Positions 2-57,457 of a stretch of 64,000 bases of DNA are shown one piece after another. The notes under the pieces were generated by a model. That model ran no database searches, was not told where the DNA came from, and saw only the letters and a program-made list of their open reading frames with translations. How positions within the stretch are numbered: position 1 is the first letter of the stretch; the number at the start of each line of letters is the position of its first letter. The stretch comes from Anaerolineae bacterium (GTDB taxonomy: Bacteria > Chloroflexota > Anaerolineae > S140-20). The stretch lies in NCBI GenBank assembly GCA_027021705.1, contig JALUTT010000145.1, forward strand, positions 827-64,826, written 5' to 3'. Made by a program: the position numbers and the translations under genes.

Positions 2-253
2 AAGGTCTGGGCGCGGGAGCTGGGCCGGTACAACATCCGCGTCAACGCCGTGGCCCCCGGCTTCACCCTCACCGCGATGGTCCGCCAGATGCCGGAGAAG
101 GTCCTGGAGCGGATGCGTGCCCGTATCCCCCTGGGCCGGCTGGCCGATCCCCGCGACATCGCCAACGCCTACCTCTTTCTCGCTTCCGACGAAGCCGCCT
201 ACATCAGCGGCGCGGTCCTGCGGGTGGACGGGGGGATTGTGGTGGGGACGTGA
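2..253 (+). CDS. Short-chain dehydrogenase/reductase, classical SDR, C-terminal fragment (N-terminus lies upstream of the window)
   Basis: Open frame from position 2, reading KVWARELGRYNIRVNAVAPGF...ISGAVLRVDGG, the typical classical SDR C-terminus (FabG-like). Stop TGA at 251-253. Confidence 0.8.
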   Translation, partial: KVWARELGRYNIRVNAVAPGFTLTAMVRQMPEKVLERMRARIPLGRLADPRDIANAYLFLASDEAAYISGAVLRVDGGIVVGT

Positions 254-334
254 GACGTGAGACGTGAGACGTGAAACGTGAGACGTGAGACGTGAGACGT
301 GAAACGTGAAACGTGAGACGTGATGCGTGATACG
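247..334. repeat. Tandem heptanucleotide array (GACGTGA/AACGTGA), about 12 copies; the first unit contains the SDR stop codon
   Basis: Direct read: gacgtga gacgtga gacgtga aacgtga ... tgcgtga tacg. Period is exactly 7. Confidence 0.95.
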
Positions 335-384
335 TCCTGCATCTTGCCTCCTGCCCCCTGTATCTTTGCACAAGTGAGAGAACA

Positions 385-19181: not shown

Positions 19182-19285
19182 CAATTCGCAACTTGCAACT
19201 TGCAACTTGCAACTTGCAATCTGCAACCTGCAACTTGCAACCTGCAACTTGTAACTTGCACCTTGCACCTTGCACCTTGCAACTT
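19182..19285. repeat. Tandem heptanucleotide array (CAACTTG, with CAACCTG/CACCTTG variants), about 15 copies, in the pckA 5' leader
   Basis: caacttg x4, caatctg, caacctg, caacttg ... caccttg x3. Confidence 0.95.
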
Positions 19286-29917: not shown

Positions 29918-32021
29918 GGTCGGGGAAGCGGTGGAGGAGAGGAGCCTGGCCCAGCCCATCCCAGACGCCCGCATCCTGGTCGTCGAGGATCACGTGGGAA
30001 CGGCCAAGCTGATCAGCCGTCTGCTGGAGAGGGCGGGGTATACCGCCCTGGAGTTCCACAGCGGTGAGGAGGCCCTGGACTTCGTCCAGGCCGTGGCGGC
30101 TGGTCAGGAGCCCCCCATTGATATGGCGATCCTGGATGTGATGATGCCCGGCGTGGACGGCTTCCAGGTCTGCGAGCGGATCCGCCAAACGGATCTGCCC
30201 GGCTACGTGCCGGTGCTGATGCTCACCGCGCTCACCTCGATCCGGGACAAAGTGAAGGGGCTGGACCTGGGAGCCGATGACTACCTGACCAAGCCCTTTA
30301 ACCACCAGGAGCTCCTGGCTCGGGTGCGGGCAGGGCTGCGGGTTCGCCAGGCAGAACAGGCCCTCTACCAGCGCAACCGACAACTGGCAGTCCTCCACCG
30401 GATCACCCAGGCGGTCAACTCCAGCCTGGAACTGGACGATGTGCTGACCATCGCGATGGAGGGGATTCAAGAACTCCTCCACGTCGAAGGGGGGTCTCTG
30501 CTCCTCGCCGACGACAAGCGGCAGACACTGACCTTCGTCCGCGCCTTGAGCCGGAATCGTGTCTCGGTGCTCAACCACACCATCGCCATCGGCGAGGGCC
30601 TCGTCGGCCAGGTGATCCGGGAGGGGCGGTCCATCTTGCTCAACGATCTTCAACAAGACCCTCAGTGGGAGGACTGTTTCAACCGGATTCTGGGGCTCAC
30701 CGCCCGGAACCTCCTCTGCGTTCCCCTGCAAGTCCGGGAGCAGGTCATCGGGGCCATTGGGGTGGTCAACAAGTGGGATGGTCCCTTCACCCCGGAGGAT
30801 CAGGGGATCCTGGAGTTGATGGCGGCTTCGGTGGCGACGGCCACGGAGAACGCCCGCCTCTTCTACGAGTTGGCCTCGGCCTACGCCGGTCTGGAGAGCA
30901 GCCGACAAGCGATTATCGAGCACCGCAACCGGCTCCAAGCTCTCTTCGACGGCATCTCTGACCGTATCTACGTGATAGATGTCAACTATCGCCTGCAAGC
31001 GGTCAACGCTGCTCAGGCTCGATGGTTGGGCAAGAAGCACGACTCACCACTGGAGGGCCTTTGCTACGCTATCCTCTACGGACGCAGGATCCCTTGTGAG
31101 GGATGTCAAGTGATGGCGGCCTTCACCCACCGCACAGTCCAGAGCTGGTCGGAGCGCCGCCGCCGGCCCGATGGACGCCGGGAGGAGTGGGAGATCAATG
31201 CCTACCCGGTCCTCAATCGGGGCGGGGAGGTGGAGCAGGCGATCCTCTTTGTCCGCGATGTGACCAAACAGCGAATGCTGGAGGCCTCGTTGCACCAGTC
31301 GGAGAAGCTGGCCGCGCTGGGCCAACTGGCTGCCGGCCTGGCCCACGAGATCAATAATCCCCTCACCGCCATCCTGGCCAACACCCAGCTCCTCCTGCTG
31401 GATACACCTCCCGAAGACCCCGCCTACGAGTCCTTGGACCTGATCCTGCGGGCCAGTGAACGGGCCATCCGGGTGGTGCGCAACCTATTGGACTTTGCCC
31501 GGCAAGAGGCTTACGATTTCGAGCCGGTAGACCTGAATCAGACGATCCGCAATGCCCTGGACCTGGTGCGCCATCAGTTCGACCTAGCCGGCATCGAGGT
31601 CATCTGCGACCTGGCTCCGGGCCTGCCCCCCGCCTACGCTAGCCGTGATCACCTGCAGAGCGTCTGGCTGAACCTTCTCCTGAACGCCCGGGATGCCCTC
31701 CTGGAGGCCGCTGAGAAGCCTCAGCGCTGGGTGCGGATCACCACATCCATCGAAGCCGACTGGTTGCAGGTCCAGGTGATGGACAATGGTGTGGGCATCC
31801 CGGAGCCCCACCTGAGCCGCATCTTCGAGCCCTTTTTCACCACCAAGGCCCCCGGCAAAGGGACCGGTCTGGGCCTCTCCACCTCTTATCAGATCATCCA
31901 GCAGCACCAGGGCCAGATCCTTGTGGACAGTGACCCGGATCAGGGGACGACTTTCACGGTGCTTCTACCGACCGCCAGCCGCAGACCGCCGACCAGGCGG
32001 CCAAGCGGCCAAGCGGCCTAG
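29892..32021 (+). CDS. Hybrid sensor histidine kinase with N-terminal receiver, GAF and PAS domains (REC-GAF-PAS-HisKA-HATPase_c)
   Basis: ILVVEDHV...[11 protein letters not shown] receiver. H-box [11 protein letters not shown]. HATPase G-boxes. Start uncertain (29892 ATG overlaps the regulator gene by 26 nt). The 3' end is encoded by a short tandem-repeat tract. Confidence 0.8.
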
Positions 32022-32116
32022 CGACCTAGCGACTCGGCGGCGAACTGAGGACCGGGGACTGAGGACCGAGGACTACCTGGCCAAGCGACCATCCGACCAA
32101 AGCGAGGAGTGAGACG

Positions 32117-37253: not shown

Positions 37254-39524
37254 ATGGTCGACCTAACAGGGCAACAGATCGGTCAATACTACATTGTGGC
37301 GCGGATTAGCAAAGGGGCTACCTCGACCATCTACAAAGCGTACCAGGCCAAGCTAAACCGCTTTGTCGCCATCAAGGTTCTCTCCCCCTATTTCACCGAA
37401 GACCCGGGCTTCTTGGAGCGTTTCGCCCGGGAGGCCCAGGCCGTCGCCCGACTGGACCACCCCAACATCCTCCCCGTTTACGACTTCGACCGCAAGGGAG
37501 ACCTGGCCTACCTGGTGATGAAGTATGTCGAGACCGGCACCCTGCGGGATATGCTCAAAGGGAAGCCGCTTGACCTGGAGACCATCTACGAGATCGTCAG
37601 CCAGGTTGGCTACGCGCTGGGGTACGCCCATCAGCATGGGATCGTCCATCGGGATGTCAAGCCGGGGAACATCCTCATCGCCGAGGGCAACTGGGCGCTG
37701 CTCTCCGATTTCGGATTGGCCAAGATCCTGGAGTCCCCCAGCGATCTGACCAAATCCGGCGTGGGGTTGGGTACTCCCGACTATATGGCCCCGGAGCAGG
37801 CCCAAGGGCTGGCCGTGGATGCTCGGACAGACATCTACGCGCTGGGTGCCGTGCTCTACGAGATGGCGACTGGCCACGTCCCCTTCGAGGCAGAGACGGC
37901 GATGGCCGTCATCGTCAAGCACCTGACGGAGCCGTTGCGCCCACCTCGCCAGCTCAACCCTGAGCTTCCCCGGGCGGTGGAGGATGTGATCCTGAAGGCG
38001 ATGGCCAAAGACCCCGATCGGCGCTTCCAGTCGGCCGAGGCGATGATCGCGGCCCTGGAGCGAGCGGTCCAGCATCAGGATAGGCCTCTGGAGATTTCGG
38101 CCAGGCTCCGACCCGCTCCTGCCGCCGAGCGAGTCCGCGATCTGTGGGACCGGGCTCGCTGGTCAGGCTCTGTGCTGCGCTCCAAGGTGGTGGCCCGTTG
38201 GCGCGATTGGTCCCCCTGGCTGCGCTCCCGGTCCCTGGTAGCTTCGACAGCCCTGCGTCGCTCCTTCCAGCGCCTTGGACCCTGGCTGCGTTTGGTGGGC
38301 GGGGCGCTTGGCGACAGGGGCCGACGAGGAGGGCAGTGGATGGCGCAGAGGGTTGCCCACCGTGCGGTCCCTCGAGCGCGCCTCCTCGGGCGCCGACTCT
38401 ACGAGGGGATCTACCGGGGGTTGGATTGGCTGGGGAACAGGACACGGGATCTGGTCTTGCAGGGTGTCGGAACCGTTGGCGCCCGTTGGCAGCGGATGAG
38501 CCGCCGCACACAGCGGGCTGCAGGGCTGGTGGCGCTACTGCTCGTGCTGATCCTCTGCGGGGGGCTGGCCCTCTTCCGTCCGCCCAGCGCCGTGGGCACC
38601 GATGGCACTCCGACGGCCACCCTGACCCCGGCAGGGACCACCGAGGTCGTTGCCGCCCAGCCCACGTCCACGTCCACCTTCACACCGACACCTGCCCCAA
38701 CCGCCACACCAACCCCTTCGCCAACGCCGACGATCACCCCCTCGCCCACCCCTTCTCCCACGCCGATGGCGGCGAGGTCGGGGATGGTTGCCGTGCCTGC
38801 CGGTCCGGTCTGGATTGGCAGCACGATGGACCAGATCAACGCGGCCGTCGCCTTCTGCGGGAGCGATTGTCGCCCCGAACAGTTCCTGGACGAGAACCCC
38901 ATCCACCAGGTTTACGTGGACAGCTTCTACATTGACAAGTTCGAGGTCACCAACGCCCAGTTCGCCTACTTCGTCAGCAAGACGGGGTACGTCACCGATG
39001 CCGAGCGGGCGGGCGACCAGGTCACCTGGCGGACCTTCAACACACCCGACCGGAAGTACCACCCGGTGATCTACGTGAGTTGGAACGATGCCAACGCCTT
39101 TTGTCGCTGGGTGGGGAAGCGGCTCCCCACCGAGGCGGAGTGGGAGAAGGCCGCCCGAGGGACGGATAAGCGGATCTGGCCTTGGGGGGATGGCTGGAAC
39201 CCCGGTGTGCTGAACAGCAGCGAGTACGGGGCCGGGCAGCCGCTCCGGGTGGGGAGCTTCAAGGCAGGTGTGAGCCCCTACGGGGCCTACGATATGGCCG
39301 GCAACGTCTGGGAGTGGGTGGCCGACTGGTATAGCGCCGTCTACTACCAGGAGAGCCCCGTGGCCAACCCTCGGGGGCCGGCTGACCAGGGGATGGGGAA
39401 GGTGATCAAGGGGGGATCGTGGAAGGTGCGAGGCTACGAGGCCCGGGTCTCCAGCCGTCAGCAAGCCTCTGTGGATGGACGTTCCGACGACATCGGCTTC
39501 CGCTGTGCCCTCAGCGCGCCATAG
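37254..39524 (+). CDS. Ser/Thr protein kinase fused via a transmembrane segment and PT-rich linker to a C-terminal formylglycine-generating-enzyme (FGE/SUMF1) domain
   Basis: Kinase subdomains (VAIKVL; HRDVKPGNIL; DFG; APE). Transmembrane segment LVALLLVLILCGGLALF. FGE-sulfatase motifs (YVSWNDANAFCRW, GFRCA). Confidence 0.88.
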   Translation: MVDLTGQQIGQYYIVARISKGATSTIYKAYQAKLNRFVAIKVLSPYFTEDPGFLERFAREAQAVARLDHPNILPVYDFDRKGDLAYLVMKYVETGTLRDMLKGKPLDLETIYEIVSQVGYALGYAHQHGIVHRDVKPGNILIAEGNWALLSDFGLAKILESPSDLTKSGVGLGTPDYMAPEQAQGLAVDARTDIYALGAVLYEMATGHVPFEAETAMAVIVKHLTEPLRPPRQLNPELPRAVEDVILKAMAKDPDRRFQSAEAMIAALERAVQHQDRPLEISARLRPAPAAERVRDLWDRARWSGSVLRSKVVARWRDWSPWLRSRSLVASTALRRSFQRLGPWLRLVGGALGDRGRRGGQWMAQRVAHRAVPRARLLGRRLYEGIYRGLDWLGNRTRDLVLQGVGTVGARWQRMSRRTQRAAGLVALLLVLILCGGLALFRPPSAVGTDGTPTATLTPAGTTEVVAAQPTSTSTFTPTPAPTATPTPSPTPTITPSPTPSPTPMAARSGMVAVPAGPVWIGSTMDQINAAVAFCGSDCRPEQFLDENPIHQVYVDSFYIDKFEVTNAQFAYFVSKTGYVTDAERAGDQVTWRTFNTPDRKYHPVIYVSWNDANAFCRWVGKRLPTEAEWEKAARGTDKRIWPWGDGWNPGVLNSSEYGAGQPLRVGSFKAGVSPYGAYDMAGNVWEWVADWYSAVYYQESPVANPRGPADQGMGKVIKGGSWKVRGYEARVSSRQQASVDGRSDDIGFRCALSAP

Positions 39525-39636
39525 GACCGCCATCGGTCGCTGAGGGGCCGGGAGATTCAAAGACATCTCGCGCACAGCCCTGGGCTACACCCAGGGCTGT
39601 GGTTTTTCCTGTGTCAGCCGTCAACGAATGTCCAAC

Positions 39637-40177
39637 GAGTGTGACCAAAATGGGTTGGAGGCGGTAGAAGCGCAACGCCCCTGCATCTTTCCCCCAACAG
39701 CCTCCGATCACGCTCGGTCCAAAAGCCCCCGGAATCACTGAAGCACTGAGGGAAGTGAAGACACTGAGCCGTCGTCTCCCATCCGTTCAATCCGTTCCCC
39801 AATCCGTTGACAGCTCGTCCGCTCCGGCCACGGCGAGAGACACAAAGGGCACCAAGAGCTCAAAGGGCACGAAGCGGTGCGAAAGGCTGGACAAGCCCTC
39901 TTGGGAGCACCACCCCCCCATCCGTTCCAAATCCGTTCAATCCGTTCCCAATCCGTTGACAGCTATCCGTTCCCCAATCCGTTGACAGCTTGTCCGTCCG
40001 CCAACCAAGCCCTCAGAATCACTGACGCACTGAGGGAGGTGAAGACACCGAGCCTTGGGCAGTGCGGCCCAGGTCGTCGGCAAGGCCGTGACCCGACGCC
40101 GGGGAGGGAGTGCATCACTCCTCAGTGAGCTCATTTCTCTCAGCGCTTCAGTGGTTCAACAGCTTTTGGTCACGCTC
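39637..40177. mobile_element. Complex MITE-like element, copy 1 (541 bp), with about 15-bp terminal inverted repeats (GAGTGTGACCAAAA / TTTTGGTCACGCTC), an internal AATCCGTT/TTGACAGCT-rich tandem unit, and a 9-bp direct repeat (ATGTCCAAC / ATATCCAAC)
   Basis: Direct repeats at 39628-39636 and 40178-40186. Same family as 53890-54780. Confidence 0.75.
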
Positions 40178-40357
40178 ATATCCAACGAATAAGCGAATGC
40201 GAATGGATGGTGTTGACGAGGCTCCGGCTTTGCGTTACACTTGGGGTGGTCGGTTGTCGGGGCTCCCTGCTGGTCTGCCGTCCACCGGGCCACCGAATGG
40301 CGAACCCGGCGGGAGCAGAGAGGTGGGAGCGGACACGCGCGATGAGAACAAGGAGGC

Positions 40358-41053
40358 TTGATGGACGTTCAGCAACTCAAACGGCAGGCTGCCGAACGGG
40401 CCGTGGAGTTCGTGGAATCGGGGATGGTGGTGGGGCTGGGCCACGGCAGCACCACCGCCTTCGCCCTGCGCCGCCTGGCCCAACTCCTCCAAGGCGGTCG
40501 GCTCCACGACATCCTGGGGGTTCCTTGCTCCTCCCACACCGAGGCAGAGGCGCGGCGGCTGGGCATCCCGTTGACCACGCTGGAAGAGCACCCGGTCGTG
40601 GACCTGACCATTGACGGGGCCGATGAGGTGGACCCGGCCCTGAACCTGATCAAGGGAGGAGGTGGGGCGCTGCTGCGGGAGAAGATCGTCGCCCAGGCCA
40701 GCCGCCGGGAGATCATCGTGGTGGACGAATCCAAGCTCTCGCCCGCCCTGGGCACCCGCTGGGCCGTGCCGGTTGAGGTGATCCCCTTCGGCTGGCGCTC
40801 CCAGGCCGCTTACCTGGAGTCCCTGGGCGCCGAGGTCGTCCTGCGACGCCGCGAGGACGGGACGCCCTTTCGGACCGACCAGGGCAACCTGATCCTCGAC
40901 TGTCGCTTCGGTCCCATACCCGATCCGGCTCCCCTGGCCGCCCGCATCAAGGCGCGAACCGGCATCGTGGAGCATGGGCTCTTCCTGGGGATGGCGACCG
41001 ATGTCATCGTCGCCGGACGGGAGGGGATCCGCCACCTGCGACGTGACGGGTAG
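40358..41053 (+). CDS. rpiA: Ribose-5-phosphate isomerase A
   Basis: 231 aa. [30 protein letters not shown]. Confidence 0.93.
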
Positions 41054-46575: not shown

Positions 46576-46596
46576 TAATGTTCCTCGGCGTCCAAG

Positions 46597-46650
46597 GTAG
46601 TCGGGTGGTCGGGTGGTCGCTTGGTCAGGTGGTCAGGTGCTCGTTTGCTC
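46597..46650. repeat. Heptamer-periodic array (GGTCRNN), the inverted counterpart of the array at 48020-48110
   Basis: gtcgggtggtcgggtggtcgcttggtcaggtggtcagg is the reverse complement of cctgaccacctgaccaagcgaccacccgac at the other border. Confidence 0.8.
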
Positions 46651-46684
46651 AGATAGCGTCGGAATGTGAAACCTGATTACCTCC

Positions 46685-48019: not shown

Positions 48020-48110
48020 CGCTGACCGCCGACCGCCGACCATTCGACCAGGCGACCACCTGACCACTCGACCAAGCGACCACCTGACCACCCGACCAAA
48101 TTATAACCGC
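48020..48110. repeat. Heptamer-periodic array (CGACCRN), the inverted partner of the array at 46597-46650
   Basis: cgaccgc cgaccgc cgaccat tcgacca ggcgacc acctgac cactcga ccaagcg accacct gaccacc cgaccaa. Confidence 0.8.
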
Positions 48111-52308: not shown

Positions 52309-53535
52309 TCATTGCTTCTCGTAAGGCTTGCCGATGGCCGCCGGCGGGATGGAGCGCCCGATGACGCCGGCCAGGACGATGACGGTGAGCACATAGGGGA
52401 CCATCTGGAGGAACTCGGCGGGGATGCCCACCCCCAGGATCTGCATCTTGTCCTGGAGGGCATCGGCGAAGCCGAAGAGCATCCCGGCTCCCAGCCCACC
52501 CAACGCCGTCCACTTGCCGAAGATGAGGGCGGCCAGCGCGACGAAGCCCTTGCCGTTGGTCATCGCGTCCTCGAAGCGGCCCACCTCGCCCAGGGAGAAG
52601 TAGGCCCCACCGATGCCGGCGATCAGCCCGCCGATGAGGACGTTGATGTAGCGGGTGCGGTTGACGTGGACGCCCAAGGTGTCGGCGGCCTGGGGATGCT
52701 CGCCCACCGCCCGCGTGCGCAGCCCCCACCGGGTGTGAAAGAGGACGACGTGGACGATGACCACCAGCACCATCATCAGGTAGACCGTCGGCTGGTGCAG
52801 GAAGAAGATGGGGCCGATGAAGGGAATCTTGGAGAGGCCGGGGATGGCGAAGGCGGTGAAGGTTCCCGGCGCGTTGTGGCCGCTGGGCGTCAGCAGCCGG
52901 ACGTTGAGGTAGCGGGTCGCCCCCACGGCCAGGATGTTGATGACGGTGCCGCTGATGATCTGGTCCACCTTGTAGCGGATGGAGAGGACGGCGTGCAGGG
53001 CGGCCATCAGGGCGCTGACCAGCATGGCCGCGCCGACGCCCACCCAGTGGCTGCCGCTGAGGGAGGCGGCGGCGACGGCGGTGAAAGCTCCGGTGAGCAT
53101 CATCCCTTCAATGGCGATGTTGATGACGCCGGAACGCTCGCACCAGAGGCCGCTGAGGGCTCCCAGCACCAAGGGGGTGGACCGCACGATGGACTCGCGA
53201 AGCATCCCCAGCAGGCTCAGGCTCCGCCCCCGGGTGAGCCAGACCAGGAAGGCGCTCACGATGAAGAGGGAGACCAGCCCCAGCAGCAGGTCGCTCCAGC
53301 GGTCTCCCTTGGCCCACTGAACGCCGGCGGCGAAGAGGGAGAGCAGGGCCAGGACGTAGAGGGCGGCCCGGGTGGGCAGGGTGACCAGCGGAGTGTCGGC
53401 GTCGAATTGGGTGAAGGCGGAGCGGTGGGCCGGCGTCACCGTCAACGCGGTCACCAGCAGGATGATGATCCCGCCGGCCAGGAAGAGCAGGCTCAGCAGT
53501 CGCTCGCGGGGGATCCCCTTGGATGTTGGACTCAC
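52309..53535 (-). CDS. ABC transporter permease, BMP/nucleoside-type (paralogue of the gene at 56195-57457)
   Basis: 408 aa polytopic. Shares CERSGVINIAIEGMML and other blocks with 56195-57457. Confidence 0.82.
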   Translation of the reverse strand: MSPTSKGIPRERLLSLLFLAGGIIILLVTALTVTPAHRSAFTQFDADTPLVTLPTRAALYVLALLSLFAAGVQWAKGDRWSDLLLGLVSLFIVSAFLVWLTRGRSLSLLGMLRESIVRSTPLVLGALSGLWCERSGVINIAIEGMMLTGAFTAVAAASLSGSHWVGVGAAMLVSALMAALHAVLSIRYKVDQIISGTVINILAVGATRYLNVRLLTPSGHNAPGTFTAFAIPGLSKIPFIGPIFFLHQPTVYLMMVLVVIVHVVLFHTRWGLRTRAVGEHPQAADTLGVHVNRTRYINVLIGGLIAGIGGAYFSLGEVGRFEDAMTNGKGFVALAALIFGKWTALGGLGAGMLFGFADALQDKMQILGVGIPAEFLQMVPYVLTVIVLAGVIGRSIPPAAIGKPYEKQ

Positions 53536-53630: not shown

Positions 53631-53867
53631 CTATTTGGGGGGCGGAGCTACCAGGATTCTTGCCTGGACCGATTCCAGGAAGAAATCCCGCAGGAACGTG
53701 CTCGCGTTCAAAATCTCGATGCCAATGAGTTCGCCTCGATCGTTCAACTCGGCGGTCACGTTGGGATGGATTTCGACGCTGCCCGCTTCTGGTTCATCGG
53801 AGAAAGCGAGGTGCAGGACATCCTCTTGCTCAAAATACACCATCCGGGTCGTCCTCTTGTCGCTCAT
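53631..53867 (-). CDS. DUF2283-like small protein
   Basis: Start trimmed to MSDKRTTRMVYFEQEDVLHLAFSD...GELIGIEILNAS (DUF2283 pattern). Confidence 0.5.
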   Translation of the reverse strand: MSDKRTTRMVYFEQEDVLHLAFSDEPEAGSVEIHPNVTAELNDRGELIGIEILNASTFLRDFFLESVQARILVAPPPK

Positions 53868-53889
53868 GCAAGTACCTCTGATTTCAAAC

Positions 53890-54780
53890 GAGTGTGACCA
53901 AAATGGGTTGGAGGCGGTAGAAGCGCAACGCCCCTGCATCTTTACCCCAGCAGCTTCCGGTCACGCTCGGTTCAAAAGCCCCCGGAATCACTGACGCACT
54001 GAGGGAAGTGAAGACACTGAACCGTCATCCCCCATCCGTTCAATCCGTTCCCCAATCCGTTGACAGCTCGTCCGCTCCGGCCACGGCGGGAGACACGAAG
54101 GACACCAAGAGCTCAAAGAGCACGAAGCGGTGCGAAGGTCTGGACAAGCCCTCTTGGGGGCACCACCCCCCCATCCGTTCCCAATCCGTTCAATCCGTTC
54201 CCAATCCGTTGACAGCTATCCGTTCCCCAATCCGTTGACAGCTCGTCCGCTCCGGCCACGGCGGGAGACACGAAGGACACCAAGAGCTCAAAGAGCACGA
54301 AGCGGTGCGAAGGTCTGGACAAACCCTCTTGGGGGCACCACCCCCCCATCCGTTCCCAATCCGTTCAATCCGTTCCCAATCCGTTGACAGCTATCCGTTC
54401 CCCAATCCGTTGACAGCTCGTCCGCTCCGGCCACGGCGGGAGACACGAAGGACACCAAGAGCTCAAAGAGCACGAAGCGGTGCGAAGGTCTGGACAAACC
54501 CTCTTGGGAGCACCAACCCCCCATCCGCTCCAAATCCGTTCAATCCGTTCCCAATCCGTTGACAGCTATCCGTTCCCCAATCCGTTGACAGCTTGTCCGT
54601 CCGCCAACCAAGCCCTCAGAATCACTGACGCACTGAGGGAGATGAAGACACTGAGCCTTGTGCAGGGCGGCCCAGGTCGTCGGCAAGGCCGTGACCCGAC
54701 GGTGGGGAGGGGGCACACAACCCCTCAGTGAGCTCATTTCTTTCAGTTGCTCAGTGATTCAACGGCTTTTGGTCACGCTC
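53890..54780. mobile_element. Complex MITE-like element, copy 2 (891 bp), with the same terminal inverted repeats as 39637-40177, about 3.5 internal ~175-bp tandem units, and a perfect 9-bp target-site duplication ATTTCAAAC
   Basis: ATTTCAAAC at 53881-53889 and 54781-54789. Terminal repeats gagtgtgaccaaaa / ttttggtcacgctc. Each internal unit has three TTGACAGCT and multiple ATCCGTT. Confidence 0.8.
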
Positions 54781-54957
54781 ATTTCAAACTTCCTCACGAC
54801 AGCGCTTGCCGTCTTGTCATCTGCGCAAAATGTCTCAAAATCCATTCCCTCTACAAATGTCTCGATGCTCTCCATGGCGGCTAGGATGTCCTTCAGGTAC
54901 AATCGGTAGTCTCTCATATCGGTACGACCTCCGACAGTACCCCCAAACCGTCCTTTG

Positions 54958-56160
54958 CTACGCTCCCCACCCCCGGCTGAAGACGACTTCCTCTTCCTCG
55001 ACCCGCCGGGGCGGGCGCAGGCGGAAGAGCCCTCGGATGATGGCAGGGGCGGCAATGAAGATGATGACCATCGCCTGGACGATCTGGACGATCTCGATGG
55101 GGATGGAGGCGACGGACTGCATCCGGGTGCCGCCGGCCCGCAGGAAGCCGAAGAGCAGCGCGGCCAGGGTGACGCCCAGGGGGTGGCTCTTGCCCAGCAG
55201 GGCCAGGGCGATGCTGTCGAAGCCGTAGCCGGCCGAGAAGCCCAGCGCCATGTTGTGGGTCACGCCCAGCACCTGGACGGCACCCGCCATCCCCGCCAGC
55301 GCTCCGCTCAGGAACATGGCCAGGACGAAGCTGCGGGCGACGTTGATGCCCCCGTAGCGGGCTGCGTTGGGGTTGGCCCCCACCGTCCGCAGCTCGAAGC
55401 CCCACACCGTCTTCCAGAGGAACCACCAGACGAAGAAGGCGGCTGCCAGGGCGATGAAGAAGCCGGCGTGGAAGCGGATGGGGTGGGGCAGGAAACGGGG
55501 CAGGACGGCCGTGGGGGCGATCTCCGGCGTGCGGGCGGTTCCCTTCATCCCCTCCATCGGCCCGTTGAGGAGCCACTCGCTCAGCTTGAAGGCGATGTAG
55601 TTGAACATAATGGTGTTGATCACCTCGTGGGCTCCGGTGCGGGCCTTCAGGTAGCCGGGGACGGCCCCCCACAGCCCGGCGCCGACGATGCCGGCCAGGA
55701 GGGCCAGGGAGACGTGGAGCAGGGCGGGGAGGCCGGTGACGGCGTAGCCCACGTAGGCGGTGCAGAGCCCACCGATGACCAATTGGCCTTCGGCCCCGAT
55801 GTTGAAGAGGCCGGCCCGGAAACCGAGGGCGACGGCCAGCCCGGCGAAGATGTAGGGCACCGAGTTGACCAGGCTCTCGCTGAAGGGGCGCAGGGCCGAA
55901 TAGAGCTTGCGGGGGTTCCCACTGCTGCGCCACTCGCCGAAGGCGCTGGTGATACGGGCCGGGCTGCCAAAGGCCCCCTCGAAGAGGGTGACGTAGGCTT
56001 GCCAGGCTTTCTGGCCGGCCAGCTTGAGCACTTGGCCGGCCGGCTCTTGCCCCGTCGCCTCGATCACCTCGGGGTCGGTGACGATGACGATGAGGCCGGC
56101 GATGAGCAATGCCGTGAGGACGGCCAGGACCGGGACGGTGAAGGTCGTCAGTTTGCGCAT
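54958..56160 (-). CDS. ABC transporter permease, BMP/nucleoside-type (paralogue of the gene at 57594-58868)
   Basis: Start trimmed to MRKLTTFTVPVLAVL. Polytopic. Confidence 0.8.
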   Translation of the reverse strand: MRKLTTFTVPVLAVLTALLIAGLIVIVTDPEVIEATGQEPAGQVLKLAGQKAWQAYVTLFEGAFGSPARITSAFGEWRSSGNPRKLYSALRPFSESLVNSVPYIFAGLAVALGFRAGLFNIGAEGQLVIGGLCTAYVGYAVTGLPALLHVSLALLAGIVGAGLWGAVPGYLKARTGAHEVINTIMFNYIAFKLSEWLLNGPMEGMKGTARTPEIAPTAVLPRFLPHPIRFHAGFFIALAAAFFVWWFLWKTVWGFELRTVGANPNAARYGGINVARSFVLAMFLSGALAGMAGAVQVLGVTHNMALGFSAGYGFDSIALALLGKSHPLGVTLAALLFGFLRAGGTRMQSVASIPIEIVQIVQAMVIIFIAAPAIIRGLFRLRPPRRVEEEEVVFSRGWGA

Positions 56161-56194: not shown

Positions 56195-57457
56195 TCAGGC
56201 TTTCTCGTAGGGTTGACCGTCGGCGGCGGGCGGGATGGCGCGGCCAACGATGCCGGCCAGCGTGATCATCGTCGCCAGGTAGGGAGCCATCAACAGGAAC
56301 TCCGAGGGGATGGGGACCTTGAGGATGGCCAGCTTCGTCTGCAGGGAGTCGGCCAGGCCGAAGATGAGGGAGGCGGCGAAGCCCCCGAAGGGGTTCCACT
56401 TGCCGAAGATCATCGCGGCCAGGCCGATGAAGCCCTTGCCGGCCGTCATCACCTCGTCGAAGCGGCCCACGGACCCCAGGGTGAAGTAGGCCCCGCCCAG
56501 GCCGGCGATGCAGCCGCCGATGATGACGTTGACGTAGCGGGTGCGGAAGACGTTGATGCCCAGCGTGTCGGCCGCCTTGGGATGCTCCCCCACCGCCCGC
56601 GTGCGCAGCCCCCAGCGGGTGTAGAAGAGCACGACGTGGGTAATGATGACCAGCAGGAGCGTCAGGTAGACGACCAGGTTGGTGTTGAAGAAGACCGGCC
56701 CCAGCACGGGGATCTTCGCCAGCAGGGGGATGGGGACGGGGCGGAAGTTGACCGAGGCGTTGAGGCGCTCGTTGGTCGCCAGCCAGCTCGCGCTCAGAAA
56801 GCTGGTCAGCCCCACGGCGAAGATGTTGATGGCCGTGCCCGCGACGATCTGGTCTACTTTGAAACGGATGGCCAGGACGGCCAGGACGGCGGCCAGCAGG
56901 CCGCCGGTGATGAGGGCCACGATGAGCCCCAGGAGCAACCCGGTCGTCGTCCCCAGCCCCCAGATGTTCTGGGCTGCGCTGGAGACGATGACGCTGGTGA
57001 AGGCGGCGCTGAGCATCATCCCCTCGATGGCGATGTTGATGACCGCCGAGCGCTCGCACCAGACGCCGCTCAGGGCGCCCAGGGTGATGGGGGTGGCCCG
57101 CAAGAGGGTGCTGACCAACATCCCCGTCAGGCTGAAGGATTTACCCCGGGCCGCCCAGGTGAGAAAGGCGAAGACGAAGACCAGGAGCAGCGTGCCCAGC
57201 ACGGCGTTGACCGCTCTGAAGCCGCGCACGAGCTGCCAGCCGCCGACGAAGGCGCACAGCAGCCCCAGCACGTAGATGGTTGTCCGGGTCGGCAGTACCA
57301 AGTCGGGCACCGGGATGGGCGGCGTCTTGGTCACGAGGTTGAGCACGAAGGTCGAGCGCTGGTCGGGGGCCGCATCCGGTCCGAAAAGGTAGATGATCGC
57401 AATGCCGATGAGGGCGAAGACCACCCCCATCGCCCGGTCACGGCGCTTCGTAGGCAT
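56195..57457 (-). CDS. ABC transporter permease, BMP/nucleoside-type
   Basis: 420 aa polytopic. CERSAVINIAIEGMML. Confidence 0.82.
   Translation of the reverse strand: MPTKRRDRAMGVVFALIGIAIIYLFGPDAAPDQRSTFVLNLVTKTPPIPVPDLVLPTRTTIYVLGLLCAFVGGWQLVRGFRAVNAVLGTLLLVFVFAFLTWAARGKSFSLTGMLVSTLLRATPITLGALSGVWCERSAVINIAIEGMMLSAAFTSVIVSSAAQNIWGLGTTTGLLLGLIVALITGGLLAAVLAVLAIRFKVDQIVAGTAINIFAVGLTSFLSASWLATNERLNASVNFRPVPIPLLAKIPVLGPVFFNTNLVVYLTLLLVIITHVVLFYTRWGLRTRAVGEHPKAADTLGINVFRTRYVNVIIGGCIAGLGGAYFTLGSVGRFDEVMTAGKGFIGLAAMIFGKWNPFGGFAASLIFGLADSLQTKLAILKVPIPSEFLLMAPYLATMITLAGIVGRAIPPAADGQPYEKA

Follow-up and report, generated by a model that had tools for sequence, protein, structure and literature searches.

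A MITE Family with an Expandable Tandem Interior in an Anaerolineae Bacterium and Its Probable ISKra4-Family Partner

Architecture and Genomic Setting of the Two Elements

The window analysed here is a stretch of 64,000 nucleotides from an Anaerolineae bacterium, and it holds two related elements on the plus strand, copy 1 at 39637-40177 (541 bp, GC 0.60) and copy 2 at 53890-54780 (891 bp), the latter having the architecture of copy 1 with two more 175-bp units. Copy 1 is located in the spacer between a kinase/FGE-sulfatase gene (37254-39524) and rpiA (40361-41053). A terminator-like hairpin of the former gene (39573-39601, plus strand) lies just upstream of the element, while a promoter-like site of rpiA, TTGACG-17-TACACT (40213-40241, plus strand), lies outside it, 35 bp from the right end. 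The position between these two signals is a neutral one. Copy 2 is surrounded by genes on the minus strand. The ATG of a DUF2283 gene (53631-53867) is found 22 nt from its left end, and a HepT-like N-terminal ORF remnant (54759-54917; HepT-like E 3.6e-4, profile positions 1-37 of 120) reaches into its right end, which supplies the last 7 codons and the stop codon. Because copy 2 lies inside a co-directional ABC-permease gene cluster, it is probably transcribed by read-through.

The same region contains three to four tandem paralogous ABC-permease genes of the BPD_transp_2 type (52309-53535, 54958-56160 and 56195-57457), whose blocks share 70-82% DNA identity (repeat families D3-D7) and which are interspersed with small toxin-antitoxin-like genes (DUF2283, HepT-like).

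The two copies can be aligned over their full length with about 93% identity, the sole gap being one of 350 bp (2 x 175), and the limits of their homology coincide exactly with the termini of the elements. Both bear GAGYGTGACCAAAA termini and flanking 9-bp duplications. Copy 1 begins with GAGTGTGACCAAAA (39637-39650) and ends with the reverse complement of GAGCGTGACCAAAA (40164-40177), the two being complementary at 13 of 14 positions, and copy 2 starts and closes in the same way. In copy 1 the terminal inverted repeat extends to 21 nt with 81% complementarity, from GAGTGTGACCAAAATGGGTTG on the left (39637-39657, plus strand) to the reverse complement GAGCGTGACCAAAAGCTGTTG on the right (40157-40177, minus strand), as is expected of a miniature inverted-repeat transposable element (MITE). 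When up to two mismatches are allowed, the 14-mer terminus has five matches in the window against 0.43 expected; the ends of the elements account for four, and the fifth is a decayed internal end in copy 2 (53955-53968). The 9-mers flanking copy 1 are ATGTCCAAC on the left (39628-39636) and ATATCCAAC on the right (40178-40186), which agree at 8 of 9 positions, and those flanking copy 2 are ATTTCAAAC on both sides (53881-53889 and 54781-54789), in agreement at 9 of 9.

The interior is made up of repeated modules. The first 79 bp of copy 1 (39637-39715, plus strand) form a palindromic "mini-MITE", consisting of the left terminal inverted repeat and a decayed inner right one (39694-39715) that is identical to the true right end at 17 of 22 positions. 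This module aligns end to end with free-standing MITEs of 79-101 bp (L007, L015, L042 and L044; L numbers denote contigs outside the window) and is a separate hairpin in the predicted fold. It is followed by a 48-nt CACTGAG-rich module (39723-39770, plus strand), which belongs to repeat family D9 and provides one arm of a 37-nt inverted repeat, I1. Clusters of ATCCGTT then alternate with a 97-nt core: a first cluster (39781-39815, plus strand) of three heptamers at spacings of 9 and 12 with TTGACAGCT, a TTGACA box, at its end; the single core of copy 1 (39816-39912, plus strand); and a second cluster (39920-39990, plus strand) of six heptamers at spacings of 11, 9, 11, 14 and 12 with two TTGACAGCT boxes. 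A second direct copy of the 48-nt module (40007-40054, plus strand; D9), a GC-rich spacer and an inverted copy of the CACTGAG module (40121-40157, minus strand) lead to the right end. This inverted copy acts as a sub-terminal inverted repeat through I1 (37 nt, 81% complementary) and is paired in the predicted fold.

Clusters and core together make up the 175-bp unit, which Tandem Repeats Finder detects in copy 2 as an array at 54043-54603 (plus strand) with a period of 175, 3.2 copies and 98% matches. Copy 1 contains 9 ATCCGTT heptamers and copy 2 contains 20, always on one strand and at spacings of 9-14 bp. These are 29 of the 33 matches in the window, for which 4.6 would be expected; the 4 matches outside the elements (4.6 expected) represent no enrichment. 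TTGACAGCT is concentrated in the same manner, with 3 occurrences in copy 1 and 7 in copy 2, or 10 of the 11 window matches against 0.23 expected. The earlier note on this DNA had described a 541-bp element with inverted termini and a 9-bp direct repeat, a second copy at 53890-54780 with a perfect duplication, internal ATCCGTT repeats with multiple TTGACAGCT boxes, and about 3.5 copies of a 175-bp unit in copy 2 against about 1.5 in copy 1. All of these points are confirmed.

Tandem arrays of 7-8-nt units are also present between genes elsewhere in the window (247-335, 1906-2014, 2820-2903, 19188-19285, 31990-32074, 46596-46652 and 48030-48099). They include GACGTGA x12.7, GCGTGAT x15.6, AACGTGA x10.7, GCAACTT x14 and GGTGGTCG/CGACCACC types, and they often begin at a stop codon or adjoin a start codon. 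The clusters in the interiors of the present family are of the same sort. Intergenic heptamer arrays have been reported for other phyla (PMC4679880).

Insertion Polymorphism and Target-Site Duplication

Public assemblies were searched with the two genes that flank copy 1. Occupied alleles were obtained from same-species contigs L051, L052 and L056, most of which end inside the element. Empty alleles of the same species were found in L058 (NCBI MAG DRQS01000018.1, annotated as Chloroflexi bacterium) and L057 (a hydrothermal-vent metagenome). In both of these, RpiA is identical to that of the window and the spacer measures 286 nt versus 836 nt. Empty alleles with the same short spacer are carried by a slightly more distant lineage (L053-L055). 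Once the element and one 9-mer are removed from the window, the alignment runs without a gap across the junction, at 99.6% identity over 2753 nt with L058, 99.4% over 1939 nt with L057, and 97.9% with L053-L055. The empty allele reads GTCAACGA-ATGTCCAAC-GAATAAGCG, with a single ATGTCCAAC in L057 and L058. Since the empty allele carries ATGTCCAAC, this was the duplicated target, and the right-hand copy in the window later changed from G to A. Copy 1 is therefore a precise insertion with a fixed 9-bp duplication, polymorphic within one species.

For copy 2, the insertion is also present in L060, and no clean empty site was obtained, L062 being the only contiguous relative. In L062 (5190-5560) a different 103-aa gene precedes the DUF2283 gene, and nucleotide homology with the window sets in again only 2 nt away from the duplication of copy 2; in the window lineage (53631-55055, minus strand) it is the HepT-like fragment that precedes the DUF2283 gene. 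This difference points to an earlier event at this AT-rich position, either a replacement or a rearrangement.

Dispersed Copies of the Family

The terminal pattern GAGYGTGACCAAAAnnnGTTGrA was scanned against a metagenome collection, which yielded 39 loci, most of them from sample Ga0256830. At least 20 of the 39 are the same element at 80-96% identity, located at unrelated positions in Ga0256830 and related assemblies, and the family is thus dispersed in multiple copies, two in the window and at least 20 beyond it. Scanning genome contigs for the same pattern gave two Anaerolineales relatives and otherwise chance matches only, and the viral contig scan gave no match. Perfect 9-bp duplications of unrelated sequence surround five copies, namely window copy 2, L017 (TTATCATTT), L028 (AAATTCGTG), L031 (CAATGATAA) and L007 (AGATCGTAT), the last of which is a 79-bp relative in an Anaerolineales MAG. 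A further five are flanked by duplications that agree at 8 of 9 positions (window copy 1, L018, L039, L042 and L044). On average the duplicated 9-mers have a GC of 0.37, compared with 0.66 for the window, and it follows that AT-rich targets are preferred. It had been proposed from the sequence that the element is mobile, with the counting of copies as a check; the precise empty site in conspecific genomes and the many copies with independent 9-bp duplications bear this out directly.

Copies differ considerably in their interiors. A subfamily of 320-400 bp (L009, 3094-3494; L010, 1253-1653; L014; L016; L035; L043) has the same termini and a different interior, which contains three direct and three inverted copies of ACGAATG, TGGTCGC-type octamers and a GTCAACGAATG...AACGAATAAACGAATG motif. 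A clear 9-bp duplication was not seen for this subfamily or for L019. Other members likewise keep the termini around different heptamer or octamer clusters (L010, L039, L006), and modules of the interior have been exchanged between copies (L039, L026). Two copies are one-ended, bearing the right terminus alone (L026, 3649-4492; L037, 1053-1565); in their interiors the 97-nt core alternates with another module, about 95 nt long and containing GGCATAGC/GCCTAGCA/GGACTGAG repeats, between ATCCGTT clusters.

The point at which copy 1 is inserted resembles the GTCAACGAATG...AACGAATAAACGAATG motif of the 320-400-bp subfamily.

One further arrangement concerns assembly. An ENA assembly of the window's species (L061, 5340-6440) leads from the right end of copy 2, by way of a truncated copy, into the left end of L028 with its flank AAATTCGTG. 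This join is probably a chimera through the repeat, and it shows these elements corrupting MAG contigs.

Local Expansion of the Tandem Array

To compare the units, 23 cores were extracted from 15 loci, where full or partial copies carry 1, 2 or 3 cores. Cores within one locus are nearest to each other in copy 2 (three cores, 97.9-99%), in L019 (96.7-100%) and in L028 (99%). Copy 1 has one core only, and its nearest relatives are cores at other loci (L026, 97.9%; L031, 96.9%), not those in copy 2. Because the cores within a locus are nearest relatives, duplication in situ after insertion is indicated, and the comparison supports the view, put forward earlier, that the interior expands by tandem duplication.

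It should be noted that every unit count was taken from assemblies of short reads, and such assemblies demonstrably fail at these repeats, either by breaking (L051, L052) or by joining the wrong loci (L061). The difference between about 1.5 and about 3.5 units might accordingly be an artefact of assembly: same-species assemblies break inside copy 1 (L051, L052, L056), one (L061) joins copy 2 to another locus, and the units of copy 2 are 98-99% identical. Nevertheless, the units bear distinguishing substitutions, arrays of 1, 2, 3 and 4 cores occur at many loci of a different assembly, and the two copies, otherwise collinear, differ in length by exactly a multiple of 175, which makes an artefact unlikely.

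Arrays Outside Complete Elements

Arrays of the 175-bp unit are also found without any terminal inverted repeat within 700 bp, in L045 (4053-4601) and L011 (11347-11854), with 3-4 units. Their flanks are other heptamer clusters (ACGAAT, CACGAAT). Decay or rearrangement may account for such arrays, for the one-ended copies and for the members with no recognisable duplication (the 320-400-bp subfamily and L019). Transposition does not explain the interior in every place where it is found, and in these cases the array may have spread by another route. An ORF in L011 (11160-11340; ...VLIVLLDIGKNVHRAGAWTA), which looks like the N-terminus of an IS110-family transposase, is apparently interrupted by the array.

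These observations raise the question of whether the heptamer-cluster array might be a satellite in its own right, propagated by recombination or gene conversion; the terminal inverted repeats would then be unrelated short MITEs that flank it by chance, and the 541-bp or 891-bp block would not move as a whole. Arrays without terminal repeats (L011, L045) or with the right end only (L026, L037), the self-contained form of the first 79 nt and the exchange of interior modules between copies (L039, L026) are what such a satellite would leave behind. At the copy 1 site, on the other hand, the whole 541-bp block is either there or missing together with exactly 9 bp, as a single unit. Perfect 9-bp duplications lie directly outside the outer termini in five copies at separate loci, and the inner end of the mini-MITE, at 17/22, is decayed. 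For the window copies an independent satellite is largely refuted, and as an explanation it is improbable.

Coding Capacity, Promoters and RNA Structure

The internal ORFs (76-85 aa) have no Pfam match, the 175-bp unit is not divisible by 3, and there are many indels between copies. As had been stated from the sequence, the elements are non-coding and the short ORFs are artefacts. No Rfam match was obtained at gathering score anywhere in the window. The TTGACA boxes were considered as outward promoters, as the earlier note had suggested, and this suggestion gains no support: for none of the TTGACAGCT boxes in either copy is there a -10 partner at 16-18 nt, and neither copy contains a consensus promoter, whereas the insertion sequence (IS) described below has a clear promoter of its own (TTGAAA-17-GATAAT). 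Relative to shuffled sequences, folding is favourable for the plus strand (z = -3.57) and less favourable for the minus strand (z = -1.67); such folds follow by construction from inverted repeats.

A domesticated cis-regulatory or RNA element, in which phased ATCCGTT binding sites, outward promoters or an attenuating or stabilising RNA would be the function and mobility incidental, can be weighed on the same data. The co-oriented ATCCGTT sites with their spacing of 9-14 bp, about one helical turn, the plus-strand fold, and the location of copy 2 only 22 nt upstream of a start codon in a co-directional cluster where it is probably transcribed would all be compatible with it. Such a function is very improbable, given the absence of any Rfam match or TTGACA box with a -10 partner, presence or absence among strains with 99.4-99.6% identical flanks, an interior highly variable in module content and number, the lack of ATCCGTT enrichment outside the elements, and a fold that follows from the inverted repeats and is weaker on the minus strand.

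The Probable Autonomous Partner

In several Ga0256830 contigs the sequence stops 126 nt inside one of two elements' ends, A and B; each of these is 100% identical between contigs, and both start with GAGCGTGACCAAAA. The 9-mers outside these ends agree between contigs, being CCCTGCCAG in L020/L034 and CAATAAATT in L022/L029/L064. Look-up of the gene adjoining end B led to the Logan contig L064, which reads through a whole IS of 1667 bp (positions 2-1668). Ends A and B are its inverted repeats, identical at 22 of 26 positions, and it holds one ORF (131-1636) of 501 aa. The encoded protein matches NCBIfam NF033572 (ISKra4 family transposase) with 281.8 bits, above the curated cut-off of 205 (E 1e-83), over profile positions 2-422 of 422. 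It also lies just above the cut-off of Pfam UPF0236 and has a weak MULE match. Judged by these profiles, the protein is classed as an ISKra4-family, Mutator-like DDE transposase. Metagenomes contain over 3200 related proteins at E <= 1e-10, most of them encoded on contigs the size of an IS, and two relatives (76% and 66% identity) belong to ISs with ends of the same type, GGGTGTGACCAAAA and GAGCGTGGCTAAAA. In the left end of the IS (L064, 40-130), a TTGAAA-17-GATAAT promoter and an AAGGAGG ribosome-binding site precede the transposase, and both are kept in relatives L066 and L067. From this conservation it can be concluded that sigma-70-type promoters are in use in this lineage.

Compared with the IS ends (GAGCGTGACCAAAA), the right MITE terminus is identical at 14 of 14 positions and the left at 13 of 14 (T/C at position 4). 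The sequence held in common is only about 23 nt at the termini; the interiors are unrelated, and ATCCGTT, CACTGAG, TTGACAGCT and ACGAATG do not occur in the IS. One sequencing run yielded both L064 and L052, the latter being 100% identical to the window, and contig L036 holds an IS end and a MITE copy together. No IS copy lies within the window itself; linkage to the same genome rests on these shared samples and on contig L036. The elements thus have their termini in common with an autonomous element of the same host, and the partner with matching inverted repeats that the earlier note had recommended seeking has been found, with the same 9-bp duplication.

An IS with Mu-like proteins was also considered as a partner. 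Its terminal pattern match (L040, L047, L048) is due to chance: the homologue L049 has no terminal match, and the IS runs on past the pattern to CCGGTCAGAAnAGC end repeats. This IS (L040, 132-2276; L047; L048; L049) encodes an rve/Mu-transposase-C protein of 420 aa and an AAA_22 ATPase, has CCGGTCAGAAnAGC motifs at its end, and occurs widely in metagenomes, with 1460 homologues counted at E <= 1e-20.

Proposed Mechanism

Taken together, the window elements are very probably copies of a non-autonomous DNA transposon, or MITE, mobilised in trans by the ISKra4-family IS. The family has been recently active, and it is a new family within a known class of mobile DNA. In the proposed process, the termini of about 23 nt, which match the ends of the 1667-bp IS in the same organism, would be bound in trans by the 501-aa transposase, and the element would then be excised or copied. 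Integration at cuts staggered by 9 bp in AT-rich DNA would produce the 9-bp duplication. As regards the interior, the simplest reading of its sequence is that a mini-MITE of 79 bp, whose inner end has decayed, now transposes together with captured repeat modules, the heptamer clusters and 175-bp units, and with another right end. The 175-bp array, once in place, then varies in unit number through local slippage or unequal recombination.

Comparison with Known Elements

The prokaryotic superfamily of Mutator-like transposases that includes ISKra4, as group p-MULT 4, was described by Guerillot et al. (2014) as having inverted repeats of 18-39 bp and duplications of 8-9 bp and as occurring in Chloroflexi; insertion 13-17 bp upstream of sigma-A promoters is a property of part of the group (PMC3942029). 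The partner IS agrees in the family model, in its 9-bp duplications (CCCTGCCAG, CAATAAATT) and in its inverted repeats of about 26 bp (22/26), which end in G and C (5'-GAG...CTC-3'). The window elements differ in having no transposase. Nor are the two copies examined inserted 13-17 bp upstream of a sigma-A promoter, since 35 bp separate copy 1, at its right end, from the -35-like TTGACG, and no promoter-like site lies in the 22 nt between copy 2 and the ATG.

Bacterial MITEs moved in trans by resident ISs, such as RUP/IS630-Spn1, Nezha/ISNpu3-like and Correia, are described in general terms elsewhere (PMC3049150). The present family is like them in its terminal inverted repeats that match an IS of the host, its duplication of fixed length, the absence of coding capacity, the many, mostly intergenic copies, the hairpin-forming sequence and the presence/absence polymorphism. 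It differs in that its partner is an IS of the ISKra4 (Mutator-like) family with a 9-bp duplication. At 541-924 bp, the window type of element is at or above the usual size range of MITEs, has an interior unrelated to that of the IS and is less AT-rich than typical MITEs, its GC of 0.60 being slightly below the 0.66 of the window; the related members of 79-101 bp do match the usual size and composition. No MITE derived from the ISKra4 family came up in full-text literature searches, and string searches of the literature for the termini found nothing relevant.

The closest architectural analogue is the pneumococcal and streptococcal BOX element (boxA-boxB(n)-boxC), in which terminal modules flank a variable number of tandem internal modules. 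The likeness is one of architecture only. The boxB unit is about 45 bp, far shorter than 175 bp. BOX has neither a demonstrated clean target duplication nor a securely identified transposase, whereas a duplication and a partner transposase have been identified for the window family. The length of BOX varies by locus and strain, alternative internal modules occur in related species, and whole elements measure 67-637 bp (PMC3049150).

The arrays of the present family are tiny (1-4 units), no long satellite blocks were seen, and the host is bacterial; in these respects the family differs from eukaryotic MITEs that seed satellites. In eukaryotes, MITEs with internal tandem repeats, MULE-derived ones among them, resemble it in combining a 9-bp duplication of the Mutator type, an expandable tandem interior and free arrays.

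Conclusions

For the ISKra4 (Mutator-like) family, a MITE/IS pair is now available in which termini, 9-bp duplication, empty site and partner transposase have all been identified. The pair reveals no new mechanism. A more far-reaching possibility, which we consider doubtful, is that the heptamer-cluster/175-bp array is itself a functional module, with putative phased, co-oriented ATCCGTT sites for a DNA-binding protein encoded by the host or the IS, that spreads both within MITEs and alone. If that were true, the MITE family would disperse architectural or regulatory binding platforms through the genome, and the genome-wide intergenic heptamer arrays of the organism would be the same phenomenon.

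The host of the MITE/IS pair is an uncultured Chloroflexota lineage whose mobile elements have hardly been described. The elements account for the breaks and mis-joins that MAG contigs of this lineage show at these points, and they provide strain markers that are ready for use, namely the presence or absence of insertions and the number of 175-bp units. Furthermore, the captured and locally expanding satellite provides a small bacterial example of the relation between MITEs and satellites that is better known in eukaryotes.
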